Shown here: in pieces, positions 31,705 to 63,273 of the stretch | How the letters are laid out: each line of letters starts with the position of its first letter | Position numbering within the stretch: the stretch's first letter is position 1 | Origin: Planctomycetota bacterium | GTDB lineage: Bacteria > Planctomycetota > UBA8108 > SXIK01 | Assembly (NCBI GenBank): GCA_965223265.1 | Contig: OZ244999.1 | Location: 2,400,001 to 2,464,000, forward strand | DNA: 64,000 nt | Direction: 5' to 3' | Notes under the pieces: model-generated | What the model was told of the DNA's origin: nothing | The model's database searches: none | Seen by the model: only the letters and a program-made list of their open reading frames with translations | Translations under genes and position numbers: made by a program

Positions 31705-31710
31705 GACCGT

Positions 31711-33285: not shown

Positions 33286-33933
33286 TCATCCGGGTATGAA
33301 CGGATCACCCTTCAGCCCGTGCTTGAGCGACTCATAGGTGCGTTGCAGCCGCCAATGGACGGTACTTCGGCTGATCTCCCGCTCCCGTGCAAACTTTGTG
33401 CGCTGCTGGTTGCGGTAGAACGTGGCGTCGAGAAGATCCCGGTCCATAGTGTCGAGACGCTCCTTGATCGCACGCTGTAGATCTCCGACGACTTCGAACA
33501 GCTGGCACAGATGATCAGGCTCGTGAAGGTTCGACGCGGGCAGCACTTCTCGAATCTTTTCCGACTGGCTGTAGGAGACTTCCGGCGGCCGCGGGGAGCG
33601 TCGGGAAGCGAACTCGACGCGGCGTCGATTGAACACGACGTGGCGGACGATCGACAGAATCAAACGTCTCATTGTTTTTTCGCACTGTGGCAGATTCAAA
33701 TCGCGGCGCCAAGCGACGATCAACGTCTCCTGAAAGAGATCGTCCACTTCGCAGCGTTTCAGTAGCGACCGCGACGCGCAGCGTGCAATGACGCGTCGGA
33801 TTTCATCTTCCACCGCGAGGATCATCTCAATCGATCCCACGCTGCCGTTGTGCTCCCTCCGCGCTCGGCGTCGACTCGACGTCGGAGTGCCCATGTCTTC
33901 TCCCCATCGTGGCTTGCTTGGTTTGCCCGTCAT
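33286..33933 (-). CDS. ECF-type RNA polymerase sigma-70 factor
   Basis: Region 2 (VDDLFQETLIVAW...RRLILSIVRHVVFNRRR) and region 4 HTH (FAREREISRSTVHWRLQR); true start may be later. Confidence 0.8.
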   Translation of the reverse strand: MTGKPSKPRWGEDMGTPTSSRRRARREHNGSVGSIEMILAVEDEIRRVIARCASRSLLKRCEVDDLFQETLIVAWRRDLNLPQCEKTMRRLILSIVRHVVFNRRRVEFASRRSPRPPEVSYSQSEKIREVLPASNLHEPDHLCQLFEVVGDLQRAIKERLDTMDRDLLDATFYRNQQRTKFAREREISRSTVHWRLQRTYESLKHGLKGDPFIPG

Positions 33934-34165
33934 TCGATCCGTCGCTTGAGCACAATCTGCTCACTCGATCGACATCGAATCACCCAAAACGAAACGATAT
34001 GTTCGCTACCGCAGCGCGACTCCACCAGGAAACGAACGCTGCTGTTCAAGCGTGCCCACAGCTCGAGTTGATGGTTCCTCGTTCTCGATTTCACTAACCG
34101 TAGGGTGTGTCTGTGCGCTTCGCAAAAAAAAAATTGGAGGAGAATTTTTTCAAAAAACAGTGCGA

Positions 34166-34401: not shown

Positions 34402-36951
34402 GTGAGTCAACCATTCGTAGTTCATGATTTCAGGGCGCTCGCCATCTCTACCCGCGTCCTTCGCAAAGCTCCGGTGCAGAGCACGACCCCAAGTGAAGGC
34501 GGCATACGGGCGGCTCTACGATCCGCTAATGGGGCGAGGGTTGCGCCAATGGTGGCGTCGCATCCGGCAGCGCTGCGCTCGCAGCGACGCTGCTGCAGTC
34601 CGGTGCGCGGTCTCGTGATCGCCGCGGTCGCCGCCTTCGCCGTCGGGTATCCGAATACCTCTGTCCCTCAGGAGACGGACAGGGAACCAGAAGTTTCCGC
34701 CTCACCTGAGGATACGATCCAGCTCAATCTGCCCGGCGAAATTGAGCTCAAAGTCTTCGTCGACCTCGTGAGTCAGCAGCTCGGAGTGAGGATCCTCCAC
34801 GACGAACGTCTGAGCGGCAAGCGTCTGACGGTCAAAGCGCCGACCGACATCTCTAAGTCGTCGCTGCGCGGCATCTTGGAGAGTGCGCTGCGGATGAAGA
34901 ACCTCGCGTTAGTGGAGGCGGGGGAGCCCGGTTGGCTGAAGATCGTCGAGGCGCAGAACCTCGCAGCGGTTTCGAGTCCCGCGTCGAAGATGCCGGCAGA
35001 TCTCAGCACCGCCAACCCAGTGCGTGCTGTGACGCAGGTCTTTCAGCTCCGGCATGTTGCACCGTCCCGCGTGCAACAGGTGATCAAGCCATTCCTCTCA
35101 GACCGCGGCGACAACGCCATCAGCGTTGAGGAGCAGCGCATTCTCATCGTCACGGACTACGCCGGCAACATGAACCGCATCCAGGAGCTCGTCGATCTCG
35201 TCGATCGGAAGGCTCACACGGTCAGCGTCACCTTCATCGATGTCCAGCACCAAGCAGCGGCCGATGTTGCTGCAAATCTGACGGAAATCCTCGACGCCCA
35301 GCACAAAGCGGAAGGAGCGAGCGGCAAGCGGGAGGGCCTCGAGATTCTCAATCTGGAGCGCACGAATCAACTGATCGTGATTGCCGCACCGCCGATTCTG
35401 CAAGAGGTCGAGAGGCTTGCCAAGCAGGTCGACGTTCCGCTCGGACTTGAGACCAAGGTTTACCGATTCACGAGTGCCTCGGCAAAAGTCGTCGACCAGT
35501 TGCTGCGGAGCTTGGTGGCGCCACAGGCGCGCGATCGGTTGTATCAGGCCGCCGTCAACGAGCCCGCCAACAGTCTCGTCGTGACAACGACACCAGAGAT
35601 TCACGCACGTGTCGAGTCGATCAAGTCGAATCTGGATACGCAGCTGGCGAAGCGTGAGCGTTCGGTTCGTTTCTATAAACTCGCGAACGCGACAGCGGCA
35701 GAAGTTCTCTTTGCGATTCAAGCGATCGAAGGCGTCCAATCAAATGGAGTCGGGGGCGGACCCGGCTCAGGCCTCGGTCCCGGGAGTTCCTCGAGGCCAT
35801 CTCTGGATCCTATTGCTACGTCGCCAGTCGATCTGCCCGAAGGATTGACTCCCGAGCCACAAGTCCCCGCTGGACCGCCGTCCGATCAGGAAGCTGCGCC
35901 GCCGGACGCCGCGCCCCCGGGCGGCGCGCCGCTCGAGGAGACCTCTCTGCCGAATCGCACCGCGTCGTCGAGCCGTAGCGCGGTGGGCAGGTCAGGAAGT
36001 GCCCAAGGAGTCACCACCTCCCGCGGCCGGATCATCGCCGAGCCGAACACGAACAGCATTGTCGTCGTCGCTACGGACGAGGATCAAGAGATGTACGCAG
36101 AGCTGATCCGCAAGCTCGATCGTCGTCGTCCTCAGGTGCTCGTGGAGGTGACCCTCGTTACGCTCGACACGAGCGGCAGTTTCTCGCTCGGAGTGGAGCT
36201 CTCGCACGCCGACGAAGACGACGATGGGGACCCACGCGTTCTCAACTTCAGTTCGTTCGGACTGAGCGAAGTAGATCCAGCGACTGGACGACTGACGCTC
36301 GCGCCCGGCCTTGGATTCAATGGCGCGCTCATCAGCGAGGACATCGCCGACGGCGTCGTCCGCGCCTTGGCGACGAGCGGTCGGGCAAAAGTCACCTCGG
36401 CACCCAAGATCCTCGTCAACGACAACGCCTCAGGAACTCTCAATAGCGTCCAAGACGCGCCTTTTACCAGCGTCAACGCTTCGAATACGGTCGCGACGAC
36501 GAGCTTCGGCGGCTTTGAAAACGCCGGTACGACCATTTCGGTCACACCCCACATCTCCGAAGGAGAACACGTCAGGCTCGAGTACTCGATCACTCTGAGC
36601 ACCTTCACCGGAGATTCGGGTGACGGTATTCCGCCACCTCGGCAACGCAACGAAGTCGAGAGCGAAGTGACGATTCCCGATGGCCACACGATCGTCGTCG
36701 GTGGGCTGCACCGCTCTGATTTCAGTGAAACCATCACGAAGGTGCCAATCCTCGGCGACATCCCGATCCTTGGTTGGCTCTTCAGCAACCGATCGAAGAA
36801 CGACACCGCGTCGACGCTGTTTGTATTCATTCGGCCGGTGATCTTACGGCAAGACCAGTTCGAAGATCTGAAGTTCATTTCGTCCCTCGATCTCAGAGAA
36901 GCCGGAGTGGCGTCGAACTATCCTGCCAGTGAGCCAGTGCTGATCGATTGA
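34402..36951 (+). CDS. gspD: Type II secretion secretin
   Basis: N0 and N domains, LDRRRPQVLVEV, SAPKILVNDN, VTIPDGHTIVVGGL, KVPILGDIPILGWLF and VFIRPVI; real start probably downstream of 34402. Confidence 0.93.
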   Translation: MSQPFVVHDFRALAISTRVLRKAPVQSTTPSEGGIRAALRSANGARVAPMVASHPAALRSQRRCCSPVRGLVIAAVAAFAVGYPNTSVPQETDREPEVSASPEDTIQLNLPGEIELKVFVDLVSQQLGVRILHDERLSGKRLTVKAPTDISKSSLRGILESALRMKNLALVEAGEPGWLKIVEAQNLAAVSSPASKMPADLSTANPVRAVTQVFQLRHVAPSRVQQVIKPFLSDRGDNAISVEEQRILIVTDYAGNMNRIQELVDLVDRKAHTVSVTFIDVQHQAAADVAANLTEILDAQHKAEGASGKREGLEILNLERTNQLIVIAAPPILQEVERLAKQVDVPLGLETKVYRFTSASAKVVDQLLRSLVAPQARDRLYQAAVNEPANSLVVTTTPEIHARVESIKSNLDTQLAKRERSVRFYKLANATAAEVLFAIQAIEGVQSNGVGGGPGSGLGPGSSSRPSLDPIATSPVDLPEGLTPEPQVPAGPPSDQEAAPPDAAPPGGAPLEETSLPNRTASSSRSAVGRSGSAQGVTTSRGRIIAEPNTNSIVVVATDEDQEMYAELIRKLDRRRPQVLVEVTLVTLDTSGSFSLGVELSHADEDDDGDPRVLNFSSFGLSEVDPATGRLTLAPGLGFNGALISEDIADGVVRALATSGRAKVTSAPKILVNDNASGTLNSVQDAPFTSVNASNTVATTSFGGFENAGTTISVTPHISEGEHVRLEYSITLSTFTGDSGDGIPPPRQRNEVESEVTIPDGHTIVVGGLHRSDFSETITKVPILGDIPILGWLFSNRSKNDTASTLFVFIRPVILRQDQFEDLKFISSLDLREAGVASNYPASEPVLID

Positions 36952-36997
36952 ACGAAGGTCAACGGATGACACCAATGCACCTCAAGAGAGAGATCAC

Positions 36998-38869
36998 TTG
37001 CATGGGGCGATGGGTTCCATGAAGCACGAGCCAACGAAGCATGCCCGTTCGCCCCACGACGTGCGGTTGATCGCCCCGCCACGCTGCGACGTTGAGCGCC
37101 GCCGCGAACGTGCCGACATCATTGACCGCACGGCAGAGCTAGACTCGGTCGATCAAGCGGAGAATATAGGCTCCGCGTCGTCGACTCCATCGCCCGACTC
37201 GGACGCCGACTCCACGCCAGCGCGAGAGATCCCTGGTCTGCGCGCTGTCAATTCAAGCCTTGGCGAGCATGAGCTGACATCGATCGCTGATTCCGCGGTG
37301 TCCTTCTCGCGCTGGCAAGACGTCGCCGAGCGTCTTGGCGTCTCGAGTATTGATGACGTTTCGAATTGCGTCGCCGACCCACGATTTGTTAGCCGCATCT
37401 CCATCCAGTACGCGCGGCAGCACGGTGTTCTTGGAGTCGATCGCCAAGGCCAGGGCTTGACGCTTCTCACGGCGACGCTCGAAGACTTCGACGTCTTCGA
37501 CGTGCTGGCTCGTTACCTTGGCGTCACCGTGACGCCATGCCTCGCACCGCGGCGCGCCATCGAGCGAGCCATCAATCAAGCCTACGAGCAGAAGAGCGGA
37601 GAGACAGAGGAACTCATCGGCACCATCGACCGCGACTCCGTGCTCGGTGAGCTGAATCAAGTGACGACGCGCGAAGACTTGCTCGAAACTTCAAGTCGCG
37701 CTCCCGTGATCAAGCTCGTGAACCTTCTGCTCTTCGAGGCGGTCAAGACTTACGCTTCGGACGTTCATATTCAGCCCTACGAAGACACGCTCGCTGTCCG
37801 CATGCGGATCGATGGCGTTCTCTTCGACATGTTCACGGTGCCAAAGGCGATTCAAGAGGAGGTCGCTAGTCGCGTCAAGATCCTCGGCAACATGAACATT
37901 GCAGAGAAGAGACTGCCGCAAGACGGCCGGGCGACGGTCAAAGTCGGTGAACGCGTCATCGATTTGCGTCTGTCATCAGTGCCGACGAGTCATGGTGAAC
38001 GCATTGTCATTCGGCTACTCGATAAGAGCGCGCGGCTCTACACGCTCGAGGAGATCGGCATGGACGCCGACACGCTCACCGCGTTTCGCGAACTTATTCG
38101 CGTCGAGCACGGGCTCGTGCTCGTGACCGGACCGACTGGTAGCGGCAAATCGACGACGCTCTACGCCGCGCTCACTGAGATCAACAACCGTCAGGGCAAC
38201 ATTATCACGCTCGAAGATCCGATCGAGTACCAGCTCGAGGGCATCAGCCAGATTCAAATTGCATCCAAAAAGGGGATGACGTTTGCGAGTGGACTCCGGA
38301 GCGTTCTGCGGCAAGATCCCGACATCATCATGGTCGGGGAAATCCGCGACGAAGAGACCGCCGTCATGGCGATCCAGTCAGCGCTCACAGGGCATCTCGT
38401 CTTCTCCACGCTGCACACAAACGATGCGGCGAGTGCGGTGACCCGGCTCCTTGACCTTGGGATCGAGCCCTACCTCGTGGCCAGCTCCGTGATCGGAGTG
38501 CTCGCGCAGCGACTCGTACGGCGCATCTGTCCGAACTGCGCCGAAGCGTACGCGCCCTCGCGTCGCGAGAAGCAGCAGTTGGAGCTGACCGCCGAAGCGG
38601 TGAGCGGGGCCCGCGTGCAGGTGGGGCGTGGTTGTCGTCGGTGTCGCACGACCGGCTACCAAGGGCGCGTGGGGCTCTTTGAGCTTCTTCCCACCAGCGC
38701 TCGCATCCGTGAGCTCGTGAGCGCCCGCGCCACGGCAGCGGAGATCAAGGACGCCGCACTCGACGCCGGCATGCGCGCGCTCCGCGACGACGGTGTTGAG
38801 AAGGTTCTCCGCGGCGCCACGACGATTGAAGAGGTGAAGCGCGTCACCATCGCGAGAAGAGCATCGTAA
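36998..38869 (+). CDS. gspE: Type II secretion ATPase
   Basis: ASDVHIQP, NIAEKRLPQDGR, Walker A GPTGSGKST, LRQDPDIIMVGEIRD, TGHLVFSTLHTN, and CPNC/CRRC Zn motif. Confidence 0.96.
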   Translation: MHGAMGSMKHEPTKHARSPHDVRLIAPPRCDVERRRERADIIDRTAELDSVDQAENIGSASSTPSPDSDADSTPAREIPGLRAVNSSLGEHELTSIADSAVSFSRWQDVAERLGVSSIDDVSNCVADPRFVSRISIQYARQHGVLGVDRQGQGLTLLTATLEDFDVFDVLARYLGVTVTPCLAPRRAIERAINQAYEQKSGETEELIGTIDRDSVLGELNQVTTREDLLETSSRAPVIKLVNLLLFEAVKTYASDVHIQPYEDTLAVRMRIDGVLFDMFTVPKAIQEEVASRVKILGNMNIAEKRLPQDGRATVKVGERVIDLRLSSVPTSHGERIVIRLLDKSARLYTLEEIGMDADTLTAFRELIRVEHGLVLVTGPTGSGKSTTLYAALTEINNRQGNIITLEDPIEYQLEGISQIQIASKKGMTFASGLRSVLRQDPDIIMVGEIRDEETAVMAIQSALTGHLVFSTLHTNDAASAVTRLLDLGIEPYLVASSVIGVLAQRLVRRICPNCAEAYAPSRREKQQLELTAEAVSGARVQVGRGCRRCRTTGYQGRVGLFELLPTSARIRELVSARATAAEIKDAALDAGMRALRDDGVEKVLRGATTIEEVKRVTIARRAS

Positions 38870-38904
38870 ACGATTGGGATCGACAACCGACCGAGGCACG
38901 AGAC

Positions 38905-40107
38905 ATGGCCCTCTTTCATTACAGAGCTTTCGACGGCGGCATGGTCGAGGTCAGCGGCACGATCGTCGCCGACTCGCCACGCCATGCTCGGGACACCCTC
39001 CGCGGCAAGGGGTTTCTCGTCGAGCATGTCGAGCCACTCCGCGAGGTGCGGCGACGGGCCGCGAAGCTCGTCTCGCGAGCTCCAAACTCAGCCCGTCTGA
39101 CAGAGTTGATTCGGGAGCTTTCGACCCTCCTGGCGGTCGACATCCCGCTTCTCCAAGCTCTCGACACTGTGATTCAGCAGCAGCGCGGCCACTTTCGTGA
39201 CGTGCTCCTTCGCCTACGCGAGCGCGTTGCGGGCGGCGCCAGCTTAGCCGAGAGCATGCGAGCGGAACCGATCGTCTTTGACGACCTCACCGTCAATATC
39301 ACCGAGGTCGGCGAACGATCCGGGACGCTCGACGAGGTCCTCACGCGCCTCGCGGAATTCAAGGAGCGCGCGGGCATGCTCAAAGGCCGGATCGGGAACG
39401 CACTCATCTATCCAGCGATCGTTCTCTCTATGGCTTTTCTTATCGCTCTGCTCCTCATGACGTTCGTCGTCCCAAATATCCTCGAGCCGCTCGTCGAAGC
39501 CGGCGGCGAGTTACCGCTCGTCACGGAGGTGGTGAAGAGCATGAGCGATGTTTTGATCAACTACTGGTGGCTGTTGGTCGTGGCGGGCGGCTGGGCCGCG
39601 GCGACCGTCGTCTTCTTTCTTCGCAGCGAACGTGGCCGTCTTCTCTGGCACCGCCTGCAGCTTCGATTGCCAATGATCGGCGGCATGGTGCGGCGCCAGT
39701 CGATGGTTAGGATCGGCATGATCATCGCGACGCTCATGCGGAGCGGCATCGCATTTCTTGAGGCACTGCAGATCGCCAAGCGGTCGACCTCAAACCGGGT
39801 CATGCGAGCGGCTCTGGACGACTGTGAGACGGCGGTGACCGCGGGCCGTGACATCTCCGAAGCGCTCGACAAAACGGGGGCGTTTTCACCGACGGTCGTG
39901 CAGGTGTTCGCGGTGGGGCAGCAGTCCGGTCGACTGGAAGCGATGCTCGAGCGTCTCGCAGTCGACTATGACCAACAGCTTCAGAGTCAAGCGCAGAGAC
40001 TCACGGCGCTCCTCGAGCCGGTGATGATTCTGATCCTCGCGTTCGTGGTTGGGTTCATCGCGTTTGCCACCATCCTTCCAATTCTGGAGGCAGGAAATGT
40101 TTTATGA
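38905..40107 (+). CDS. gspF: Type II secretion inner-membrane platform protein
   Basis: Two T2SSF domains (GERSGTL...ALIYP; GQQSGRL...LLEP) with TM helices. Confidence 0.95.
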   Translation: MALFHYRAFDGGMVEVSGTIVADSPRHARDTLRGKGFLVEHVEPLREVRRRAAKLVSRAPNSARLTELIRELSTLLAVDIPLLQALDTVIQQQRGHFRDVLLRLRERVAGGASLAESMRAEPIVFDDLTVNITEVGERSGTLDEVLTRLAEFKERAGMLKGRIGNALIYPAIVLSMAFLIALLLMTFVVPNILEPLVEAGGELPLVTEVVKSMSDVLINYWWLLVVAGGWAAATVVFFLRSERGRLLWHRLQLRLPMIGGMVRRQSMVRIGMIIATLMRSGIAFLEALQIAKRSTSNRVMRAALDDCETAVTAGRDISEALDKTGAFSPTVVQVFAVGQQSGRLEAMLERLAVDYDQQLQSQAQRLTALLEPVMILILAFVVGFIAFATILPILEAGNVL

Positions 40108-40555
40108 CAGCACCGTCCATCGTCGCCGGCGAGTGCTCGAGATTGGCGATGATTCGGGTCGTCGGCCGGCCGGCAGTGGCTTCTCTCTCATCGAGGTCAT
40201 GGTCGTCTTGGTGATCATCGCGCTTCTTGCCAGCATCGTTGGCATCAATGTCAAAAGTCACATCGACCGGGGCCGCCAGAAGAAGGCGCGCGCCGATATC
40301 TCGGTTTTGACCACGCAAGTCAAGCTCTTCTACGCCAACACTGGACGTTATCCCACGGCGAGCGAAGGGCTGCAGGTGCTTGTTCCGGAATACGTCGAGA
40401 CGCTGTCGAGAGATCCGTGGCGGAACGACTATCAGTACGAAATCCCTGGCCGCGGCGGCGCGTTCGACGTGATCTGCTTCGGCGCCGATGGACGTGAGGG
40501 CGGCGAGGAAAGCGCTCAGGACATCACCAACTGGGACCTCGACGAAGAGGGGTAG
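40097..40555 (+). CDS. gspG: Major pseudopilin
   Basis: G|FSLIEVMVVLVII, GRYPT..GL..L, DPWRNDYQY..PG and FGADGREGG...DI motifs; ATG 40097 has a GGAGG RBS. Confidence 0.93.
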   Translation: MFYDSTVHRRRRVLEIGDDSGRRPAGSGFSLIEVMVVLVIIALLASIVGINVKSHIDRGRQKKARADISVLTTQVKLFYANTGRYPTASEGLQVLVPEYVETLSRDPWRNDYQYEIPGRGGAFDVICFGADGREGGEESAQDITNWDLDEEG

Positions 40556-40563
40556 CTGCTGAC

Positions 40564-41082
40564 GTGAACGAACGAGGTTTTACTTTGATCGAAGTCGTCG
40601 CCGTGCTTGTTCTCACGGCGCTCCTCGCCGGCGGTGTCGCCGTCTCACTTCGCAGGGCGCTGTACAGCGTTCAGCTCCGAGACGTCATTGGTCGTCTTGT
40701 GGCGTTTGATGTCGAGCTGCGAGCGGCGGGCGTCGCGACGGGCGAACCGCAGGCGCTGCGGTACTCACTCGACGAGAACCGCGTGGCGCGTGTTCGTGAT
40801 CGTGACCGCGGCTCACGCGCGACTGTCGAGACGTACGCGTTGCCGCAGCGCTTCGACCTGCGGAAAGTGTGGCTCTCGGGTCACGGCGAGCGTCCGGTCA
40901 TCAGCGGCACCGAGACCATCGGAAGCTCGGCCGACGGACAGACGCCGTCCTATGCGGTCTCTGTCGCGGACGGCACCACAGGGCAGACGGCGACGCTCGT
41001 GTTCTCAGGGCTTTCAGGGCAAATCACAAGGCTGGACGATGAACAAAAGATCAGCGAGATCTTTCGACTCTTGGCGCGGTAG
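40564..41082 (+). CDS. Minor pseudopilin (GspH-like)
   Basis: RG|FTLIEVVAVLVL prepilin motif; position after gspG. Confidence 0.8.
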   Translation: MNERGFTLIEVVAVLVLTALLAGGVAVSLRRALYSVQLRDVIGRLVAFDVELRAAGVATGEPQALRYSLDENRVARVRDRDRGSRATVETYALPQRFDLRKVWLSGHGERPVISGTETIGSSADGQTPSYAVSVADGTTGQTATLVFSGLSGQITRLDDEQKISEIFRLLAR

Positions 41083-41482
41083 TACCCTTGTCGAAGTGAT
41101 CGCCGGGCTCGGTTTGCTCGGGACGCTTCTCGTCGCTCTCGTTCTGGCGCGCTCCCGGCTGCTGGAGCAGAATGCGCTCGCGCAAAAAAAGATGGACGCC
41201 GCCGCCGTCGCCGAACGTCTGCTTGCGAGTTGGTGGACGAGCGGCGAGCCCATGCCACGAGAGGAGAGGGGTGAGGCGGATGGGCACCGCTGGCAGACGC
41301 GAGTTGTGTCGAACGATGCGCTGCGCGCCTGCGACGGAGAAATCCTTCGCCTCGAGCTGCTTGCGCAGACACCAGCACTCAGCGGTGACCCACTCGTGGC
41401 GGTGGAAATCGCCCTCCCGCGCCCCGAGGCGGACGCGAAAGACTCCAATGCAACTGGAGTGCGAACAGGAGTCGTTCGATGA
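41039..41482 (+). CDS. Minor pseudopilin (GspI-like)
   Basis: RG|STLVEVIAGLGLL variant prepilin motif; ATG at 41039 within the 40607 ORF. Confidence 0.75.
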   Translation: MNKRSARSFDSWRGSTLVEVIAGLGLLGTLLVALVLARSRLLEQNALAQKKMDAAAVAERLLASWWTSGEPMPREERGEADGHRWQTRVVSNDALRACDGEILRLELLAQTPALSGDPLVAVEIALPRPEADAKDSNATGVRTGVVR

Positions 41483-43310: not shown

Positions 43311-43313
43311 GAC

Positions 43314-55000: not shown

Positions 55001-55585
55001 GGCCCAATCATCGGAAGAGACCCGTCAGGACTTCTGGTCCCTCAGGCGTTTTGCGTTGGGTGTTTTGCTGCCCTAGCCGACCTTGCGAAGGTATGGATTG
55101 ACGCATGTATAGGCAATGCTGCTCACCCAGATTTCATGAAGTGCTTTCTTTACGGTGATGGCACGCCGGGTTCTGGCTATCTGGCGTCCATTGACACATG
55201 GGGGATTTTTGCCGTTTGTCTCTGTTGTGGCGGATCTGCGGTTTTCAGGAAATTCGGTGAGAACGCTGCAAAAAAAGCCTGGGAAAAGTGGCTTAAGAAA
55301 AAAGCCAAGAAAAAGCTCCTAGCACGGCAAAAAGCCAGACAACTCGCTAAGAAGAAATTCCAAGACGAGGTGTCGGAAAAATCCAAAAAGAGGATTATCG
55401 AGTGGATGAAAGATATCGATAGAGGTTCAGTGGACGTGAATGAACTGCCTGACGGTGTGACCATAGACGATGCGAAGCGGTGGCTCGATTTGCTTGAGAA
55501 ATCGCTCGGTGAGCGGAGTGGATTCCAGACGATCGACAAACGCCTTCCGGCTATTCGAGAAGCGATTCGGCGTGCAAAACCTTGA
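49100..55585 (+). CDS. rhs: Full-length Rhs (YD-repeat) polymorphic toxin with signal peptide, DUF6531-like domain and C-terminal toxin tip
   Basis: Hydrophobic leader (WVVSLLFCAVVMWGNFLQA|N), PV.L..G......DLSLPG..FPWSHTRTYDS, many YD..GR repeats, core RNREYD..LGRFLTRDP...DG.NLYEYV...P....DPSGL. Confidence 0.93.
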   Translation: MRSIVNGQEAQTPRSVVEQWVVSLLFCAVVMWGNFLQANTPVYPEFFVVDTPNIHDQHSIDDGRSPSEVTLTCSGTGPCGVVQDGVGSCSSDSAVVGKTSAPVFLYRGSAVEAVTDLSLPGIAFPWSHTRTYDSRLISSTSAPLPSISGERWIGGLAELHIEEDAASGDITLIVNASTKRVFDEDSGSYTAPLDYTATLEIANAGTSTEEFTLTHVDTGEVFVFYGFTPEPSGIDADLHGKLKRRSNRHFEEESKNGNEYVYDEDNGQVETINIKNGAAVLYTVTYSYSSDRISSIVLKEGATELKKVEYTYFNAASHHEDVGAAGDLVQVSQSEKASDGSTWITHITQYRYYSDGDDDGGAHQLKAVYEPGAIERLVGHIPEITSASGILGEADNYSGTGSSAVEAFSSRNFTYYTSAFDTGTAQTPTPWGVQNLESDYGGSNLFESGWVRTETVNGSCSSCGGGSGGGQKRTYFYMSLSQTQPSVSEVTRIVVEDTEDASGGEAYRRIYGLNKQGKVLRRAFVEDPTATTLTVWCDSVKINSSSRVTELRKPSAHEVTSNSLLTKFLDPEGGSPTAGQNDTDTLKPSDGAIYVYDHNADGRRRWTQIKKGRTGTAYYVSGTKWGDGIVADEPKHLPVATYRFPKKTTNSGDTSRVDTSFAYDFWDTDDTQIKVKTTTLPVISTSQNGSGTATELKEYHDELGRLRWVKDGEGNITYHSYHPELGRRAYTMVDVETDSLRSDITAGVSGKYVEWDDGAGGDTIPSGFTNTDNDNLEIVTKTEYDELGRTELQIDAKSFEHYTVYQDGRTLEFPYWDRSGGEPKRAIRVVETDDAGNPVDFFTMSPSQATSTGGGSNKVPTGVSDADNQVYYLSWTHFGYDPDSGELVEEDRYFDIPREVDRELGTLSTDFHRKAFKYDGLGRREFVIEVSSGTLTSSGVEQITENVYDVRGRITRIKRGISDDSHNMGASYSIPTSGIDTVEEIVYDDGGVGDGYVTTRRRYHTTTGFTGERSHISYRGDLRGIEPFYGSGATETAIGPFTVYDMNWAGDWTAIGVYDVEPSWEGVGSTVLAGDGYNDFANTQESNRKALTKRAYDDLGRVYETEVWTINASTGQKGVKSAIEQFYDRNDNIVAQTTKNEAFVEQAYDGAGRRYQSRVVVDDIAANPYSSGAFVYRDPKPDPEVRDMDALTSSGGDDDVLQISHQELDASGQTVEIHVFEANHDDTDGIDLTDDDDYVRLSDFFWYDANTDFLTTRANYGSGDTAAGAGTWDRFAIPSPATAPTSSSDQTLVTKFLFTDSSDLETVTRPSGASGESVEKIFYDDLGRKTYVAENFVDFVVSSESGTGGTDKSEDRVTYISYNGLDQITEQAALDANGDGSTSDEQITTYLYEDSHSAALVTSIIYPDSADTDSTGSDQVKFEWNLDGSLERKTDQLETVIERTYNNRRQLDFEKVTTLAEDVDGHVRSIKIEYDSVARLEKVTSYANSDGTGTIRNQILFEYNDLGQVEKSWQSHEGAKISTTPKVEYDYDLSSLNGVYNDGARLNYVQYPDGRKIHYGYSTSGSASDRMNRVASISEDNGSGSPAATPLVSYDFSGLNRLAETHLEAPGVRLTHHHGDTDGDYEGLDRFARPKDHFWDGSPDVDRFKYTYDRAHNVTQRIVDSSIYSTQDKDQVFEYDGLERLTSYERRVLVIGPVNHEQDYTLDQLGNWTDFVEKTSGTTDLDQDRGHNDANEITSVSAPPMQPQWITPLFDAAGNMTEGPKPGDETTKHLYVYDAWNRLVKVKNAAGTTTLATYEYDGLDRRIRVEDSSQDNWDYYYNEDWQVIEIREDADPDPLKQYVWHPYYIDALAVRFWDQHTTGSQTTHFYTHDANMNVTALLDDNGSVKERYEYTPYGQVNVLNSTFGAGGGSLYDQEVLYTGQRREPISKLHHYRNREYDSSLGRFLTRDPLDYVDGLNLYEYVKSGPIIGRDPSGLLVPQAFCVGCFAALADLAKVWIDACIGNAAHPDFMKCFLYGDGTPGSGYLASIDTWGIFAVCLCCGGSAVFRKFGENAAKKAWEKWLKKKAKKKLLARQKARQLAKKKFQDEVSEKSKKRIIEWMKDIDRGSVDVNELPDGVTIDDAKRWLDLLEKSLGERSGFQTIDKRLPAIREAIRRAKP

Positions 55586-55976
55586 GAGTTTCCTATACAG
55601 CGGCGAAACTAGACGGTGCGCAACTAATATGTAGATTGCAGGACCGGACTGATTCACTATTGATTCTGTGTGTGGGTAGGTGGGGGGGATTGTACCGTGC
55701 TGGACGATGAGAGTTCGTCAGAGTGAAGACACATCGGTTGCCCGAGTGGACGAGAGCACGATAGGCAGACGATGTGAATTATCGATCGCGAGGTGATTCT
55801 CGCGTTGATTCGAAGAGGAGGTTTCGGTAGCGCAAGATTGCACGTCATGTGGCGTGCCGGAGCAGAGTCTCGCCCGCCGCGGGATGGGTTTCTGAGCGCT
55901 GACGAGCGCGTCTCACGAGGAGAGCGGAAACTCAAGATCGAAGAATCATTCCACTTGAATCCCGAGCCAAAACAAT

Positions 55977-56585
55977 ATGCACGAAGTAGAGTACGTTGAT
56001 GGATTGGAGGGCCCGGTTCTGGCCCATAATTGGGACGTTGGCGGATTGGCCTCCGCGCTGCGAACTGGCTTGTGCGATGCAGCTTCGTGGTGTCTTTCGG
56101 AATTGAGAAACGACCCGGAAGATCCCGCGACTCTGTTTCGGTCGCCGGAACTGAGGCCGCCACGAGTCGGCGAATTGACCAGATCATGGGAGTGCGTTCC
56201 GTTGATTCGTGAATGCGTTGAGTATGTCGCTCACATGCGATCGCGATTTCTTCGAGACAGAAGAGTCGAGCAAGTGTCATTGGAGTTCGCGTTGCAGTCT
56301 GGTTGGATCCTTGGCCACGCCATTTCGCGTTGTACGGCTGACCACACAGCTCACACAGTTTCTCCAGTGTTCGACAGGTGGGACAACATTGGCTGGGATT
56401 GTTGGGTAATGTTTGGATCGACGACTGATTTCACGTCGCCACCGAGTGAATTCGACTACACTCTGTCGTGGATACCGAAAAAGATAATCCCTCTTGTCGA
56501 CGAGGCGATGTTGGGCCCTGATGATTGTCTTGTCTGGATTCCTCCGAAACGGCTTGATCTAGATTCCGAGTGGGTCAAGTTGTAG
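55977..56585 (+). CDS. Hypothetical protein, candidate immunity protein
   Basis: 202-aa ORF downstream of the Rhs gene; a conserved paralog at 32624-33219 supports coding status. Confidence 0.65.
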   Translation: MHEVEYVDGLEGPVLAHNWDVGGLASALRTGLCDAASWCLSELRNDPEDPATLFRSPELRPPRVGELTRSWECVPLIRECVEYVAHMRSRFLRDRRVEQVSLEFALQSGWILGHAISRCTADHTAHTVSPVFDRWDNIGWDCWVMFGSTTDFTSPPSEFDYTLSWIPKKIIPLVDEAMLGPDDCLVWIPPKRLDLDSEWVKL

Positions 56586-56615: not shown

Positions 56616-58153
56616 CATGCGGCATCGGATAACACGCGAAGCGCTGTAGTAGTGAAACTTGCGGCGCCGCACATGCGTGATCGGTTAGCCGTAAGCTCCA
56701 TCGTAGTCATCGCTTACGACTCGAGCGATTCGTGCGTATAGAAAAAGAGGCCAAAATCTCGGACACTTCGTGACTCACCAAAGAAACGGAGTGAAGAGAT
56801 CATGGCCACAAGGAAGTGTATCGAACTACGATCCTGTCTCAAGAGCCTCTTTCCCGACAAGTTGATCCGCGATGAGTCTCGAGCGAGTGGTTTTGTGCTC
56901 CGGGAGCGAAAGATCAGGGCGGTTCCGTTCTTTTGGACATTGGTCCTGGGCTTTGGGGTTGGATCGGAGCGGACGATCTCTGCGCTGCGTCGAGCCTACG
57001 AACGCTCGACGTCGTCGACCGTTGTTCCGTCCTCGTTCTACGATCGTTTCGACGCCAGTCTTGTGCGCTTTCTGAAAGCTGCGGTGAAGCGATCGTTGGC
57101 AACCTTTCAGGCATCGTGGACTGAAATCGAGGAGCGCGTCGGAAAGTTTACGGACTTGATCATCGTTGACTCCACAGTGATGAAGCTTCACGAAAAGCTC
57201 AGAGGATCGTTCCCAGGGTGCCGAACGAACTCAGCGCCGGCTGCGGCGAAACTTCATGCAGTCCTCAGTGTGCGCGGCAAAGGAGGCTCGACGGTCGCTC
57301 TCACTTCGGAGCGAAGTGCGGACCTGCGAAAACTTCGCACAGGTCCGTGGGTTCGAGACCGCCTTCTCCTCTTCGATCTCGGCTACTTCAAGTGGCAGCT
57401 CTTCCATCGCATCAGGAAAAACGGTGGCTTCTTCCTGACTCGATTGAAGCAAAACGCCAACCCGACAATTACTAAAATCCATCGCAGTGTTCGCGGCAAC
57501 TCGATCCCCCTCGTGGGGGAGAGACTTCAAGACGTCCTACCTCGATTGAAAAGAGAAACTCTCGACGTTGAGATCGAAGCCTCGTTTGCAACCCGCAAGC
57601 ACCGAGGCCGAGCGCGTCGCGCTCACGAGCGTTTTCGACTTGTCGCCATCCGCAACGAAGACGACGGCCAGTATCACCTCTACGTCACCAACGTCGAACA
57701 CGACGATCTCATCGCCGAGGAGATCGCCAACGTCTACCGCTATCGCTGGGAAATCGAACTCATCTTCAAGGAGCTAAAGTCCGGCTACCGAATGGACCAG
57801 CTGACGAGCCGGCGCCCCCACGTGGTGGAAGCGATGATCTACTGTGCAATTCTGACACTTGTCGTCAGCCGAGAGCTTCTACGCCACCTTGCCTCACGAG
57901 TCCGCAGCGGTGCCGAGCGAGTCGCTGCGGGGCGTTGGTGGAAGCTTCTGGCGAACTACGCTCAGGAGCTTCAACTCCTCGTCGTTCGACCACGCCGAGA
58001 CGCTCACCTCGCCGCTGGACTCGTCGACACCTTCCTGCACGAAATTGTCGACCCTCATACTGACAGACGCCCACTCTTGAGTCAGGTGTTTCGTTGATGT
58101 GGCGCCGTAAGTTTCATCTCTACAGAGCTTTGCGCGTTATCCGATGCCGCATG
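56616..58153 (+). mobile_element. IS4-family insertion sequence (1538 bp)
   Basis: Ends CATGCGGCATCGGATAAC and GTTATCCGATGCCGCATG form a perfect 18-bp inverted repeat that extends imperfectly to about 55 bp; no flanking direct repeat. Confidence 0.9.
56802..58097 (+). CDS. IS4-family DDE transposase
   Basis: IVDST, LFDLGYF and the YREK motif YRYRWEIELIFKELKS. Confidence 0.93.
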   Translation: MATRKCIELRSCLKSLFPDKLIRDESRASGFVLRERKIRAVPFFWTLVLGFGVGSERTISALRRAYERSTSSTVVPSSFYDRFDASLVRFLKAAVKRSLATFQASWTEIEERVGKFTDLIIVDSTVMKLHEKLRGSFPGCRTNSAPAAAKLHAVLSVRGKGGSTVALTSERSADLRKLRTGPWVRDRLLLFDLGYFKWQLFHRIRKNGGFFLTRLKQNANPTITKIHRSVRGNSIPLVGERLQDVLPRLKRETLDVEIEASFATRKHRGRARRAHERFRLVAIRNEDDGQYHLYVTNVEHDDLIAEEIANVYRYRWEIELIFKELKSGYRMDQLTSRRPHVVEAMIYCAILTLVVSRELLRHLASRVRSGAERVAAGRWWKLLANYAQELQLLVVRPRRDAHLAAGLVDTFLHEIVDPHTDRRPLLSQVFR

Positions 58154-61100
58154 AGGACACGGAAGACTCCGCAGGGAACGAGGCGTGCCGTCGCATCTAT
58201 GGGTTGAACAAACAGGGTAAAGTGCTTCGCAGGGCGTTTATTGAAGACCCGATGGCGACGACGCTGACAGCTTGGTGCGATTCGGTCAAGATCAACTCCT
58301 CCAGCCGCGTCACGGAGGTTCGAAGGCCGTCAGCGCACGAGGTGACGAGCAACTCCCTGATGACGAAGTTCCTAGATCCTGAAGGGGGATCGCCCACCGC
58401 CGGTCAGAACGACATCGACACGCTGAAACCGAGCGACGGCGCGATCTACGTCTACGACCACAACCCCGATGGGCGACGTACGTGGACTCGGATCAAGAAG
58501 GGGCGAACCGGAACCGCATACTATGTCAACGGAACAAAGTGGGGTGACGGCCTCGTGGCTGATCAACCCAAGCACCTCCCCGTAGCAACCTACAGGTTTC
58601 CGACGAAGACAGATGATTCGGACGACTTGTCGCGGGTCGACACGAGCTTCGCCTACGATTTCTGGGATGCGGATGAGACCCAGATCAAGGTGAAGACAAC
58701 GACGCTACCGGAAATTCCTACTAGTCAGAACGGCGCCGGCACCGGCAACGCCACGGTACTCAAGGAGTATCATGATGAGCTCGGGCGACTTCGTTGGGTG
58801 AAGGATGGAGAGGGATACATCACCTATCACTCGTATCACCCAGAGCTTGGCAGGCGCGCCTACACCATGATCGACGTCGACACCGACGCTCTACGGAGCG
58901 ACATCACCTCTGGGGTGAGTGGCAAGTATGTGAAATGGGAGGACGACTCGGGCGGCAGCGACGCGCCGAGCGGATTTCTGAACGGCGGCAACGACAACCT
59001 CGAGATTGTCACCAAGGCCGAATATGACGAGCTTGGCCGCACCGAGCTTGAGATCGACGCCAAAGGCTTCAAGCACTACACCGTCTACCAGGACGGTCGC
59101 ACCCTGGAGTTTCCGTATTGGGATGGATCGGACGGGAAACCGAAACGTGCCATTCAAGTCGTGGAAACAAATGATGCAGGCAAGCCCGTCGATGTCTTCA
59201 CGGTGTCGCCCTCTCAGGCGACGTCGACCGGGAGCAATCCGGACAAGGTTCCGAGCGGGGTCTCGGATGCAGACGACCAGACCAACTACCTGAGCTGGAC
59301 AAACTTTGGCTACGATTCCCAGACTGGCGAGCTCGTCGAGGAAGATCGTTACTTTGACATTCCCGGCGCCGGGTCCGGGACGCTTTCGACACACTTCCAT
59401 CGCATAGCCTACAAGTACGATGAACTCGGCCGTCGCGAGTTCGTCATCGAGGTCTCCAGCGGCACGCTCACGAGCAACGGTGTCGAGCAAATCACGCAGA
59501 ACGTCTACGATGTGCGTGACCGCATCACGTGCATCAAACGTGGTGTCAGCGGCGATTCACACAATCTGGGTTCGAGCTATGCAATCCCCACGAGCGGCAT
59601 CGATACGGTCGAAGAGGTCGATTACGACGACGGTGGTGTCGGCGACGGGTACGTCACAACTCGTAGGAGATACCATACGACAACCGATTTCACGGGTACG
59701 AAGGTCCACATCACCTACAAAGGCGAACGGCGCGGGGTCGAGCGTTTTTTCGGTAACGGAACCACCGAGACCGCGGTCGGACCGTTTATTGTCTACGACA
59801 TCAACTGGGAAGGAAACAGAACCGCGGCAGGTATCTACGATGTCGAGCCCAGTTGGGAAGGCAGCGGTTCCAGCGTCCTCGCTGATGAGGGATACACCGA
59901 TTTCGCGAATACGCAAGAAAGCAATCGAAGGGCGCTAAAGAAGAACGCTTACGACGATCTCGGACGCATCTACCAGACAGAGATTTGGACGATCAACGCA
60001 TCGACCGGGCAAAAAGGGGTTAAGTTTCTTATCGAGCGATTCTACGATCGTAACGACAGCATTGTCGCCCAAACAACAAAGAACGGGACGTTCGTCGAGC
60101 ATGCCTATGACGGAGCGGGAAGGCGTTATCAGTCCCGGGTCGTCGCCGACAACATTGCTACGAACCCCTATTCTTCAGGAGGGTTCGTTTACCGCGATCC
60201 AAAGCCGGATCCGGAAGTGCGAGACATGGACGCTTTGACGTCAGGCGGTGGTGACGATGATGTTGTCGAGGTAAAGCATCAAGAACTCGACGCTTCCGGG
60301 CGAATCATCGAGAGTCATGTCTTTGAAGCGAACCACGACGACACTGACGGGATCGACCTTACAGACGACGACGACTACGTACGTCTCTCAAAGTTCTTCT
60401 GGTATGACGGGAAAACGGATTTCTTAACGACGAGCGCCAACTACGGCAGTGGGGACACCGCTACGGGTGCGGGTACATGGGATCGCTTCGATATACCTGC
60501 ACCAGCCTCAGCGCCTACTTCCAGCAGTGATCAGACGCTCGTGACGGAGTTTTTTTTTAACGATTCGAGCTACCTAGAGACGGTCACCAGGCCCATTGGC
60601 GCTTCCGGCGAGAGCGTCGAAAAGATCTTCTACGACGATCTCGGCCGCAAAAAATACGTAGCGGAAAATTTCGTCAATTTCATAGCCTCAACCGAGTCTG
60701 GAACAGGAGGAACCGACAAATCAGAGGATCGCGTTACGTACATCTCGTACAACGGTCTGAATCAGATCACCGAGCGGGCCGCGCTCGACGCTAATGGGGA
60801 CGGCTCGACGAGCGACGAACAGATCACGACCCGCCTCTACGAAGATTCGCACGATGCGGCTCTCGTCACCAGCATCATATATCCCGACTCTACCGATACG
60901 GATTCTTCGGGTTCGGACCAAGTGAAATTCGAGTGGAACCTTGACGGCTCGCTCGAGCGCAGGACCGATCAACTCGAAACAGTGATCGAGCGCACGTACA
61001 ACAATCGTCGCCAGGTGGAGTTTCAGAAGGTCTCGACGCTCGCGAGCGGCGTTGACGGGCATGTGCGTTCGGTGAAACGAGAGTACGACTCGCTGGCGCG

Positions 61101-63273
61101 CCTCGAGAAGGTCACTTCATACGCCAACAGCGACGGCACGGGCACGGTCCGCAACCAGATCCTCTTCGAGTACAACGACCTTGGTCAGGTCAAGAAGTCT
61201 TGGCAGTCGCACGAGGGGAACAAGATTTCCACGACGCCGAAGGTTGAGTACGACTATGACCTCTCGGCTCTCAACAGTATCTACGATGATGGTGCACGTC
61301 TGAACTATGTTCAGTACCCCGATGGCCGCAAGATCCATTACGGCTATTCGACGGGCGGTTCGGCCTCTGACCGTATGAGCCGCGTTGTGTCGATCGCCGA
61401 GGATAACGGCTCGGGCTCTCCGGCCACGACACCGCTGGTCAACTACGCCTTCAATGGTCTAAGCCGGTTGGCTGAGACGAATTTCGACGAGCCTGACGTC
61501 CGTCTGACGTACCACCAGGGAGACGGCGACGGGGACTACGAGGGCTTTGACCGTTTCGGTCGCCCAAAAGACCATTTCTGGGACGGCTACAGTACAACCT
61601 CGGATGTTGACCGCTTCAAGTACGTCTACAACCAGGCCGGTACTGTTACGCACCGGATTATCGATTCGTCAATCCACTCGACGCAGGACAAGGACCAGGT
61701 TTTCGAGTACGACGGACTCGAGCGTCTGACTTCTTATGACCGGCGGGTGCTCGTTGGATCGATCAACTACGAGCAGGACTATACGCTTGATCAACTCGGC
61801 AACTGGACGGACTTTGTCGAAAAGACAAACGGCACGACGGATCTCGATCAGGACCGCGGCCATAACGACGTCAATGAGATCACCTCCGTCAGTGCCCCGC
61901 CGATGCAGCCGCAGTGGATCACACCGCTCTTCGACGCCGCCGGGAACATGACCGAAGGGCCGAAGCCGGGCGACGAGACAACGAAGCACCTCTATGTCTA
62001 CGACGCCTGGAATCGGCTCGTCAAAGTGAAAAACGCAGCAGGCACGACAACGCTGGCGACGTACGAGTACGACGGCTTGAATCGCCGGATCCGCGTCGAG
62101 GATAGCTCTCAGGAGAGCTGGGACTACTACTATAACGAAGACTGGCAGGTCATCGAGATCCGTGAGGACGCCGACCCCGATCCGCTCAAGCAGTACGTCT
62201 GGCACCCGTACTACATCGACGCGCTGGCGGTGCGCTTTTGGGACCAGCACACAACGGGAACGCCGACGACGCACTTCTACACCCACGATGCCAACATGAA
62301 CGTTACGGCGCTTTGCGGCGACGACGGAGGCGTGAAGGAACGATACGAGTACACTCCGTACGGCGAGGTAAGTATTCTGACCGCGGCTTTCGCAGAGAGG
62401 GGCTCGAGTCTCTATGATCAAGAAGTGCTTCACACAGGGCGCCGACGGGAGCCCATCTCTCGTCTTTACCACTGCAGAAACCGTGAGTATCATCCAAATC
62501 TCGGGAGATGGACTCGGCGCGACCCACGGGGGTTCGGAGACGGCATGAATTTGTACGAGTTCGTACGGGCCCAACCGGTTGGTAGAGTAGATCCGTACGG
62601 TCTCGAGAGTAAGATCTACTTCGAAGCGGAAGTTAAGATTCTTGAGTTGGATCTCATTTATGATGATGTCATGTATCATGCACGTATAGCCGATACATTC
62701 CGCTGTGAAAAAGACGTCCCGGTGGTTGGTCACGCGGCCCCCGAGACAATAGTCGATGAAGGGGATTCTCAAACAAACAATCCCCCTCATGTTGAACCGA
62801 ACGCAGATTGTGGAAAGAACCAGAGTCCTGGAGTTGTGTATTCATGGAACGGGTCTTCGATTGAGGACGACGCGTTAGGGATGGAAATCGCTGCGGGGCT
62901 CGGTGCTGCTGGTGCGGCAGGCGCTGGCGCTGTTTTCGGCTTCGGAGGTGGGGCCATAGCACTCGGAGCCCCTGCCGGTTGGCCCGGGGCTCTCGCGGGT
63001 GCTTCCGCTGGTGGTACCATTGGGGGCGCCGCAGGGGCTGGTGTTGGAGGGGCGGCTGAGGAATTACTTGATGACGAGTGGAGTTTGCACTGGCGAGTGA
63101 GGTTTAGGCTCTGCTGCATCTGCGAAGAAGCGAGAGAGGGGTTCATTGGGCCCGCAAGCCCGGATCCAGTTTACGAACCTAGGTTGAAGTTCCTCGAGGC
63201 AAACCTTAGCTTTGATTCGTTTGGGGAGGATGAGTTCGTGGCGGAGTCTTTCTGGGCTGCACGAGAACGCTAA
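58144..63273 (+). pseudogene. rhs: 5'-truncated (orphan) Rhs module with a distinct toxin tip; reading frame still open
   Basis: Collinear with Rhs1 from residue 496 (EDTED); starts at the IS4 right end; core ends DPYGL at 62590-62604. Confidence 0.85.

Follow-up and report, generated by a model that had tools for sequence, protein, structure and literature searches.

A leader-bearing Rhs polymorphic-toxin candidate beside a complete type II secretion operon in Planctomycetota

Well-studied Rhs toxins of diderm bacteria mostly leave the cell through a type VI secretion system (T6SS) or as Tc components. How Rhs toxins without T6SS or Tc parts exit diderm cells is an open question. Here we describe a locus that bears on this question, in a 64,000-nucleotide stretch of the genome of a Planctomycetota bacterium (assembly GCA_965223265.1, contig OZ244999.1, positions 2,400,001–2,464,000 of the forward strand). 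This whole stretch is called the window below, and coordinates are counted from its first letter. The locus encodes a 2161-residue Rhs protein with a Sec-type leader (Rhs1) beside a complete type II secretion system (T2SS) operon. From the positions of the genes we propose, with about even confidence, that this is a Sec-dependent Rhs polymorphic-toxin locus and that the neighbouring T2SS exports the Rhs protein.

A T2SS route for such toxins has so far been proposed on three grounds: signal peptides (2012), a single secretin mutant (2020) and linkage to gspG in two proteobacterial genera (2025). Zhang et al. (2012) predicted T2SS export for many RHS toxins (PMC3482391). The toxins in that class resemble Rhs1 in bearing signal peptides, and some are from planctomycetes; the assignment there is an entry in the export-pathway column of a table, whereas the window presents linkage to a gsp operon. 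Marutani-Hert et al. (2020) reported that the supernatant activity of Bcn-A, a 1398-residue Rhs/teneurin-like protein of Xanthomonas perforans, is lost in an xpsD (GspD) mutant (PMC7259588). Like Rhs1, Bcn-A is a large Rhs-like protein encoded next to an immunity gene, which in the window is a candidate one. Bcn-A is much smaller than the 2161-residue Rhs1. As described in that report, it is proven to be antibacterial and depends on a housekeeping Xps system encoded elsewhere, whereas Rhs1 is encoded beside a T2SS operon and is known from genes alone.

The 2025 study concerns the Xanthomonas family XRhs F VIII (180 toxins in 118 genomes) and the Ralstonia family RRhs F II (56 toxins), which are linked to gspG and predicted to use T2SS export (bioRxiv 10.1101/2025.05.08.652813); by its authors' account this export has not been functionally confirmed. 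Both families share with the present locus a Rhs protein defined by its N-terminal region and linked to T2SS rather than T6SS genes. The link given in the text of that preprint is to gspG, whereas in the window and five of the related loci described below (L001, L002, L028, L039 and L073) the toxin gene is paired with all or most of a gsp operon. The phylum also differs, and the families are compared here by description, not by sequence. A looser parallel comes from Omnitrophota, in which T2SS-like loci containing gspD, gspE and gspF stand directly beside giant genes (bioRxiv 10.1101/2023.11.21.568195). There, too, gsp genes adjoin genes for very large extracellular proteins, and predicted structures in that report resemble Rhs beta-helices; the cargo, in a different phylum, is described as giant proteins of the adhesin or hydrolase type, not as Rhs-core toxins with immunity genes.

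A preliminary description of this DNA, made from its letters and ORFs, knew of no characterised system of this form. Judged by the sources above, T2SS-linked Rhs proteins had already been predicted or implicated in 2012, 2020 and 2025, and the concept of a T2SS-exported Rhs is not new. The form, by contrast, is new: in Planctomycetota, whole gsp operons are paired with Rhs genes, and one genome has paralogous pairs. Our literature searches on Rhs and type II secretion in planctomycetes returned no description of such linkage in that phylum.

Window genes were taken from an open reading frame (ORF) listing and then scanned against Pfam and NCBIfam, the Pfam scan covering 41 ORFs. The T2SS operon lies on the + strand at 34402–46689 and reads gspD-E-F-G-H-I-J-K-C-L-M, followed by a tetratricopeptide-repeat (TPR) lipoprotein gene. 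It had been described as tightly coupled, and this holds: adjoining genes are spaced by −44 to +46 bp, and GspE and GspG pass the cut-offs of their equivalog models. The secretin GspD (34402–36951) matches the Secretin domain (E-value 3.3e-39, 134.6 bits), four copies of Secretin_N (127.1 bits) and the N0 domain (29.1 bits), all over the Pfam cut-offs; against NCBIfam TIGR02517 it scores 338.9 bits, slightly under the cut-off of 351.35. The gspD ORF opens at a GTG at 34402, but an internal Met followed by a hydrophobic leader points to a true start further in, near 34549. Between its N-domains and secretin domain, GspD has a low-complexity insertion of ~100 residues (~440–545) rich in Pro, Gly and Ser. 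The ATPase GspE (36998–38869) scores 636.1 bits against TIGR02533 (cut-off 630.25) and matches T2SSE at 7.6e-131, and the platform protein GspF (38905–40107) matches T2SSF (4.7e-55, 185.3 bits). The major pseudopilin GspG (40049–40555) scores 106.1 bits against TIGR01710 (cut-off 88.85) and has an N_methyl motif, as do the pseudopilins GspH (40564–41082) and GspJ (41479–42234). Of the other pseudopilins, GspI (41039–41482, in the frame of ORF 40607–41482) contains the prepilin-like motif GSTLVEV and GspK (42231–43310) matches NF037980 with an E-value of 4.8e-8.

GspC, GspL and GspM make up a T2SS-specific assembly platform that separates these systems from type IV pili. In the window they correspond to a gspC-like gene (43314–43811; T2SSC, E 2.9e-5), gspL (43811–45310; TIGR01709, E 4.7e-15) and gspM (45307–45834; NF040576, E 9.2e-8). 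Each has the right family as its best match at a score under the curated cut-off, and their order and size fit a T2SS. Homologues of all three occupy the same positions in the same order at many of the 80 related loci that we compared by tblastn (see below). The final gene encodes a PilW/Tgl-like TPR lipoprotein (45880–46689; TPR families; TIGR02521 PilW, E 3.7e-13) with a lipobox-like LFGVQG↓C. It is the conserved last gene of this operon family, with a tblastn match downstream of gspM at 58 of the 80 loci. No prepilin peptidase GspO was found among the window ORFs in the Pfam and NCBIfam scans; this peptidase is often encoded away from the gsp operon.

Rhs1 (49100–55585, + strand) is an intact polymorphic-toxin candidate of 2161 residues, recognised by RHS_repeat PF05593 (25.3 bits, cut-off 22) and the Rhs-core model TIGR03696 (66.8 bits, cut-off 32.5). 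The Sec-like leader claimed for it is supported: the N-terminus is leader-like, with Arg2 and Arg14, a hydrophobic stretch over residues 20–35 and then LQA↓NT. The leader is followed by a Cys-rich stretch, a DUF6531 match, the Rhs repeats, the core and the tip. The DUF6531-like domain noted previously does yield a match, but at 20.2 bits it falls under the Pfam cut-off of 24.1. The core spans residues 1894–1978 and closes with GRDPSGL. Beyond it, the C-terminal 187 residues form a tip with two hydrophobic segments and a Lys-rich helix, for which neither Pfam nor the ESM Atlas gave a match. The nearest solved chain is the ‘Rhs family protein’ of a T6SS (7q97), which aligns with residues 1754–1995 (E 2.8e-10) and covers the core only; matches in the PDB to TcdB2-TccC3 and YenC2 are likewise limited to the core region, residues 1870–1981.

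With T6SS Rhs effectors such as 7q97, the shared features are the Rhs shell, a core ending in DPxGL, the variable tip, orphan copies and rearrangement driven by insertion sequences. Unlike those effectors, Rhs1 has a Sec-type leader in place of a PAAR or prePAAR domain. Neither was found in Rhs1, and no Eag-type chaperone was found in the 41 window ORFs. The same scan bore out the earlier statement that no PAAR, VgrG, Hcp, WXG100, TcB or T9SS module is visible, and TcA and TcB families were both missing from the ORFs scanned.

The evidence for a connection between Rhs1 and the T2SS comes from related loci. A GspF probe aligned with 30 homologues yielded 80 loci on contigs representing one genome per species, with 10-kb flanks; the source genome of the window is not among them. 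GspL was dropped as a probe, having only two homologues at 30–34% identity. The loci were searched by tblastn with 18 window proteins and with a hidden Markov model (HMM) built from three full-length Rhs proteins. The T2SS operon family, terminal lipoprotein included, is widespread in Phycisphaerae and Planctomycetia. Rhs1 has tblastn matches at six of the loci, all confirmed by the HMM, and the Rhs-core model backs five of the six. Together with a seventh locus that carries a PT-HINT toxin gene, this makes 7 of the 80 loci, besides the window, with a Rhs or PT-HINT gene linked to gsp genes. The linkage is thus not confined to this contig.

The arrangement at these loci varies between the toxin-linked clades. 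In Aeoliella sp. SH292 (L028), a full-length Rhs1 homologue of 2208 residues lies directly upstream of gspF, with the Rhs gene, two small ORFs, a 252-bp gap and gspF packed on one strand. L039 has a 2400-residue full-length homologue, also upstream of gspF; the homologues of L028 (35% identity) and L039 are 34–35% identical to Rhs1 over residues ~80–2046. In L029 a homologous C-terminal part occupies the position upstream of gspF (46% identity). At L001 and L002 the Rhs-core proteins are encoded upstream of gspD, the latter also bearing a PT-HINT domain, and at L073 the end of a PT-HINT toxin gene at the contig edge is followed by two small ORFs and then gspD. In Fontivita pretiosa (L047) the Rhs gene is divergent from gspD (HMM E 7.7e-39), and only its N-terminal part is visible. 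Inside the T2SS operon of L039 (14212–16176), the pseudopilin genes are separated from gspL by a transglutaminase-like gene (387 residues) and an orphan Rhs-core/tip cassette (262 residues; TIGR03696 41.6 bits, cut-off 32.5). This cassette was one of five weaker HMM matches; the other four, at L063, L068, L067 and L076 (E 6.5e-9 to 2e-5), were discounted, as none reaches the Rhs-core cut-off; the match at L067 is antisense to the TPR lipoprotein gene.

We placed these loci on a quick IQ-TREE phylogeny of 81 GspF sequences with SH-aLRT branch support. One clade unites the window with L001, L002, L073 and L067 (support 98), and a second contains L028, L029, L039 and L035 (support 95). A locus was considered testable when at least 1.5 kb of upstream sequence was visible; L067 (400 bp) and L035 (812 bp) fall below this limit and were not judged. 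On this basis a toxin gene stands beside the T2SS at 6 of 6 testable loci of the two clades, in addition to the window, compared with 1 of 57 outside them (L047). The earlier suggestion that one T2SS clade might be consistently linked to signal-peptide Rhs genes is in this respect supported within the 80 loci. The toxin label requires 5 changes on the tree, against a mean of 7.8 when shuffled, and 1 of 500 shuffles was as low. All seven toxin genes end at most 2.5 kb upstream of the first T2SS gene, a zone that makes up 29% of the 546 kb of visible flank (p ~2e-4 for seven events, ~7e-3 when counted as four lineages). Downstream, the flank at most loci reaches ~3.4 kb past the lipoprotein gene, so that of a Rhs placed as in the window no more than the divergent beginning would be seen.

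One genome adds an internal comparison. A 5.76-Mb Phycisphaeraceae genome (OY763327.1) contains three T2SS operons of the family, L001, L002 and L013. Between L001 and L002, nucleotide identity is 87% for the T2SS genes and 64–66% for the Rhs genes, and the order is the same, each operon having its own Rhs gene upstream. L013, the third operon, falls in a different clade and lies beside no toxin gene. Pairing in a distant phylum, in differing gene orders, and with two paralogous pairs beside an unpaired third T2SS strengthens the idea of T2SS export. The carriers include cultured strains, Aeoliella sp. SH292 and Fontivita pretiosa B-254, which allow direct tests. If confirmed, such export would add a contact-independent or surface-display mode of Rhs delivery, and would raise the structural problem of how so large a folded cocoon could pass through a secretin or be placed on it.

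The Rhs family itself points to life outside the cytoplasm. Database proteins sharing the N-terminal 500 residues of Rhs1 number 21 (28–44% identity, 1515–2302 residues). A leader-like N-terminus, basic and then hydrophobic, is present in 16 of them, and the other 5 appear to start inside the protein; the Rhs proteins of L028, L039 and L047 also have leader-like N-termini. A Cys/Pro/Gly-rich stretch just past the leader (residues ~70–90 in Rhs1) occurs in the same place in L028, L039, L047 and the database homologues, and a CxxC motif near residue 460 (~455–470) recurs across the same proteins. Both features are consistent with disulfides formed outside the cytoplasm. The tips of L028, L039, L029, L001 and L002 are all different, and none of the tips compared matches a named toxin family; two database homologues of Rhs1 carry precomputed Pfam annotations, PF15649 and PF14252. 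The small ORFs that follow the Rhs genes are unrelated between loci, as expected of immunity genes matched to different tips.

These observations suggest a four-step route. Rhs1 would cross the inner membrane through Sec by means of a cleavable leader, as its own N-terminus and the conservation of such leaders in the family indicate. In the periplasm it would fold and form disulfides, a step to which the Cys-rich linker and conserved CxxC point. The neighbouring T2SS would then move it across or onto the outer membrane; recurrent gene linkage is the ground for this step. Finally, the variable C-terminal tip would act on competitors while an immunity protein guards producers. In the window this proposal involves one intact 2161-residue gene, a candidate immunity gene and an orphan copy, truncated by an insertion sequence (IS), that would be able to serve as a spare tip.

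Several points weigh against this proposal. In solved GspD secretins the lumen is roughly the width of Rhs and Tc cocoons or narrower, and passage of a folded cocoon of ~230 kDa through the secretin is therefore physically doubtful. The two clades were recognised after the data had been seen, L001 and L002 share a genome, and the tree is a quick one. Rhs1 lies downstream of the T2SS operon, from which it is set off by a 796-bp gap containing a terminator-like hairpin, whereas the toxin gene is upstream in every other linked locus. The candidate immunity protein lacks a membrane segment although the Rhs1 tip looks membrane-active. The remaining points concern the mobile surroundings of the linked loci and the ordinary neighbours of most T2SS operons, and each is the basis of a different explanation.

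The first such explanation is that both modules may simply live in variable islands, T2SS operon copies and Rhs cassettes alike being accessory, IS-flanked DNA that gathers at common sites. Adjacency would then be co-location without function, and the Rhs protein would leave by vesicles, by lysis or through an unknown system, or would stay cell-bound. The window provides several features of this kind: two IS elements in the Rhs region, of the IS4 and IS3 families, the gap and hairpin just mentioned, and a step in GC content from 0.63–0.65 over the T2SS genes to 0.55–0.59 over the Rhs region and the 30–34-kb segment. Elsewhere, the T2SS of L001 is bracketed by 306-bp repeats, 99% identical, of Mutator-family transposase genes, a DDE transposase gene lies downstream in L047, and one genome has several T2SS copies. 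Three further window genes described below, encoding a sigma-like protein, a 513-residue TPR protein (TPR513) and a 202-residue ORF, have tblastn matches at none of the 80 loci. Co-location alone does not readily account for linkage at every testable locus of two clades and at 1 of 57 elsewhere, or for toxin genes always within 2.5 kb upstream when 71% of the visible flank lies elsewhere. It also fits poorly with linkage retained through duplication in OY763327.1 while the Rhs genes diverged to 64–66% and the T2SS genes to 87%, with the tight same-strand packing from Rhs to gspF in L028, and with the orphan Rhs cassette inside the L039 operon. We regard the island explanation as possible though somewhat unlikely.

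A second explanation concerns the machine. The T2SS could be a general secretion system for which Rhs is one of many cargoes, the linkage reflecting co-regulation or convenience. We scanned 75 small upstream ORFs, 74 large upstream ORFs (14 near-duplicates of TPR type were left out) and 99 ORFs from the first two downstream positions. In the majority of the 80 loci the operon has no toxin gene beside it and lies in a conserved, housekeeping-type context, with neighbours that include ExbB-ExbD-TonB-TPR, DUF1800, rpoB and EF-Ts. The downstream genes are varied and also of a housekeeping kind, encoding RpoB, EF-Ts, SelB, transporters and glycoside hydrolases. The operon family overall therefore looks like an ordinary T2SS, and toxin linkage is a property of particular clades. 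GspE and GspG of the window score as ordinary equivalogs, and in Xanthomonas it is the housekeeping Xps that is implicated for Bcn-A (PMC7259588). Set against this, toxin linkage is concentrated in two clades, and of the three operons in OY763327.1 only the two that belong to the toxin-linked clade adjoin Rhs genes. On balance a general machine seems an unlikely explanation.

The clade-linked toxins fit T2SS paralogues specialised, though perhaps not exclusively, for such cargo. A bolder form of the idea, which we advance only tentatively and think somewhat improbable, is that these Planctomycetota T2SS paralogues are dedicated exporters or surface launchers of ~230-kDa, Sec-delivered Rhs cocoons, each travelling with its own toxin while a separate T2SS handles ordinary cargo. 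If true, this would be the first dedicated combination of a T2SS and a polymorphic-toxin weapon, and the secretin would have to let through, or mount on the surface, a folded cocoon whose size equals or exceeds the limit accepted for the channel.

Three of the loci share a further gene. A related gene for a protein of 540–650 residues lies directly before the Rhs gene at L028 (28–1974), L039 (37–1653) and L047 (3479–5293, minus strand). Its product combines a PA14-like beta part with a helical part and has a leader-like start in L047, and we consider it a candidate partner or chaperone. The predicted structure of the L028 protein (pLDDT 60, pTM 0.37) is too poor to classify its fold.

In the window the immunity position is occupied by the 202-residue ORF (55977–56585, + strand), which starts 391 bp past Rhs1. 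It belongs to an unnamed family of proteins of ~180–200 residues (72 representatives at E ≤ 1e-3), and no Pfam match was found in 40 members. The AlphaFold2 model is confident (pLDDT 90.1) and matches no fold in the PDB (best E 0.83), and the sequence contains no hydrophobic segment. An ‘immunity-like gene’ was claimed here previously. The position of the ORF agrees with this, but its family is unnamed, it lies 391 bp away from Rhs1, and a frameshifted copy exists at 32624. We retain it as a candidate immunity gene that is not identified with confidence.

The frameshifted paralogue (32624–33219, + strand) is 91% identical in nucleotides over 643 bp. It has a 1-bp deletion at codon 63, and its codon differences are 26 synonymous and 27 non-synonymous. 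The two copies form a 643-bp direct repeat (32561–33201 and 55915–56556) that brackets the sigma gene, the T2SS operon, the TPR513 gene and Rhs1. The repeat may have been left by a tandem duplication, or may serve as a substrate by which the whole block is deleted. It also lends itself to a different interpretation of the locus, in which a mobile T2SS island is stabilised by the toxin/immunity cassette as an addiction module, so that the link has to do with retention of the DNA and not with export. The transposase copies that bracket the L001 T2SS would agree with such a role. A secreted toxin of 2161 residues with a leader would nevertheless make an unusual stabiliser. The leader is conserved across the family, which favours a role outside the cytoplasm, and literature searches gave no case of this kind. 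We consider an addiction module highly improbable.

The ORF is followed by an IS4-family element (56616–58153, + strand), which was unmentioned in the preliminary description and separates the Rhs1 side from a second Rhs gene. Its transposase (56802–58097; DDE_Tnp_1) scores 238.9 bits against NF033592 (cut-off 115) and lies between 56-bp inverted repeats at 56616–56671 and 58098–58153. No target-site duplication is visible in the flanks, and the transposase has no tblastn match at the 80 loci. The second gene, Rhs2 (58144–63273, + strand, 1709 residues), begins at about Rhs1 residue 497. Nucleotide homology between the two genes (83%, 58153–62493 versus 50585–54922) begins exactly at the end of the IS, and the ATG of Rhs2 is supplied by the IS4 terminus. 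The protein has no leader, lacks the first ~496 residues and ends in a Gly-rich tip; past the core, the tips of Rhs1 and Rhs2 are unrelated. A second Rhs with a different tip had been reported, and the tip does differ; since homology starts only at the IS end and the leader is missing, however, Rhs2 is a 5′-truncated orphan copy and not a second working toxin. The missing target-site duplication and the ATG provided by the right end of the IS4 element suggest that IS-mediated deletion or recombination, rather than simple insertion, made the junction. The Rhs region is closed by an IS3-family orfA-like helix-turn-helix gene (63456–63764, + strand; HTH_28, HTH_Tnp_1; NF033516, E 1.8e-11).

Between the T2SS operon and the genes for TPR513 and Rhs1 lies an intergenic region of 796 bp (46690–47485). 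The terminator-like hairpin (46692–46708) is placed directly past the stop codon of the TPR lipoprotein gene. The region also contains a duplicated unit of ~170 bp and three copies of the palindrome TACCTTAGTAAGRTA (46808–46822, 47036–47050 and 47169–47183), each within a repeated unit of ~40–170 bp. On the + strand these three sites compare with 0 expected, and in the window the palindrome is confined to this gap. It may serve as an operator or as an AT-rich terminator, or may be a small mobile repeat; Rfam gave no match over window positions 30000–64000. Given the gap, the hairpin and the repeats, the TPR/Rhs genes probably do not belong to the T2SS operon.

TPR513 (47486–49027, + strand), a membrane-anchored protein, is encoded 72 bp upstream of Rhs1 and has TPR families and one N-terminal hydrophobic segment (residues 21–47). 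The preliminary description placed a TPR protein here, in the same orientation as the other genes. The gene is present as described but is not a conserved part of the system; among the loci compared it occurs only in the window, and a role as a conserved adaptor was rejected for that reason. In the ESM Atlas it falls in generic TPR clusters only. It showed no similarity to the TPR protein encoded ahead of gspD in L042 (E 0.25) or to the partner family of L028, L039 and L047 (L028_648, L039_538 and L047_605; hhalign probability 0.1). A complex prediction of TPR513 (residues 48–513) with the N-terminal region of Rhs1 (residues 37–520) scored 0.00 and weighs neither way.

A gene for a 215-residue sigma-70-like protein of the extracytoplasmic function (ECF) type (33286–33933, − strand) is divergent from gspD. 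It matches TIGR02937 over its full length at E 2.2e-8, but the score of 33.9 bits is under the cut-off of 42.9, and Pfam recognises no sigma family in it. Region 2 resembles the ECF factor SigL in the PDB (E 4.9e-4). The evidence is weak but consistent, and the gene reported as a divergent ECF sigma gene is indeed divergent and only weakly ECF-like. No anti-sigma-like gene stands beside it, its neighbour being the frameshifted paralogue of the 202-residue ORF. The claim that the system is under its own ECF sigma factor was not borne out, as the gene matched none of the 80 loci by tblastn and Pfam detected none among the 75 small upstream ORFs, nor did the sets of large upstream and downstream ORFs contain a sigma factor. 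We consider the sigma-like gene and TPR513 to be local additions and not conserved parts. A promoter motif common to the intergenic regions between the sigma gene and gspD and between the T2SS and TPR513 was rejected, with nothing shared beyond a 10-mer; each region has one AAC...CGT match, which is not meaningful.

Just upstream of the frameshifted 202-residue copy, a segment with a GC content of 0.556 (30655–32487) contains a gene for a 258-residue ankyrin-repeat protein and a 280-residue ORF without a family. This segment may be a remnant immunity array, as Zhang et al. (2012) list ankyrin proteins among immunity proteins (PMC3482391).

The wider T2SS family shows other recurrent neighbours. 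In a large Phycisphaeraceae clade (L042, L046, L053, L054, L058, L061 and relatives), a block of ~2–6 kb directly upstream of gspD encodes ExbB-ExbD-TonB and then a TPR protein of 450–550 residues. Tepidisphaeraceae loci have divergent DUF1800/CHRD genes. In another clade, of Planctomycetia, genes for two large beta-propeller proteins take the place of Rhs upstream of gspF (L074, 5257–9840; L076, 4550–8863; L077, 772–3117). These proteins combine Reg_prop repeats with a middle domain like that of hydrazine synthase alpha, and in L074 gspD and gspE lie downstream of the operon. The beta-propeller genes may be cargo genes built into T2SS operons. The remainder of the window encodes typical planctomycete families, PSCyt1/PSCyt2/PSD1, DUF1501 and DUF1552.

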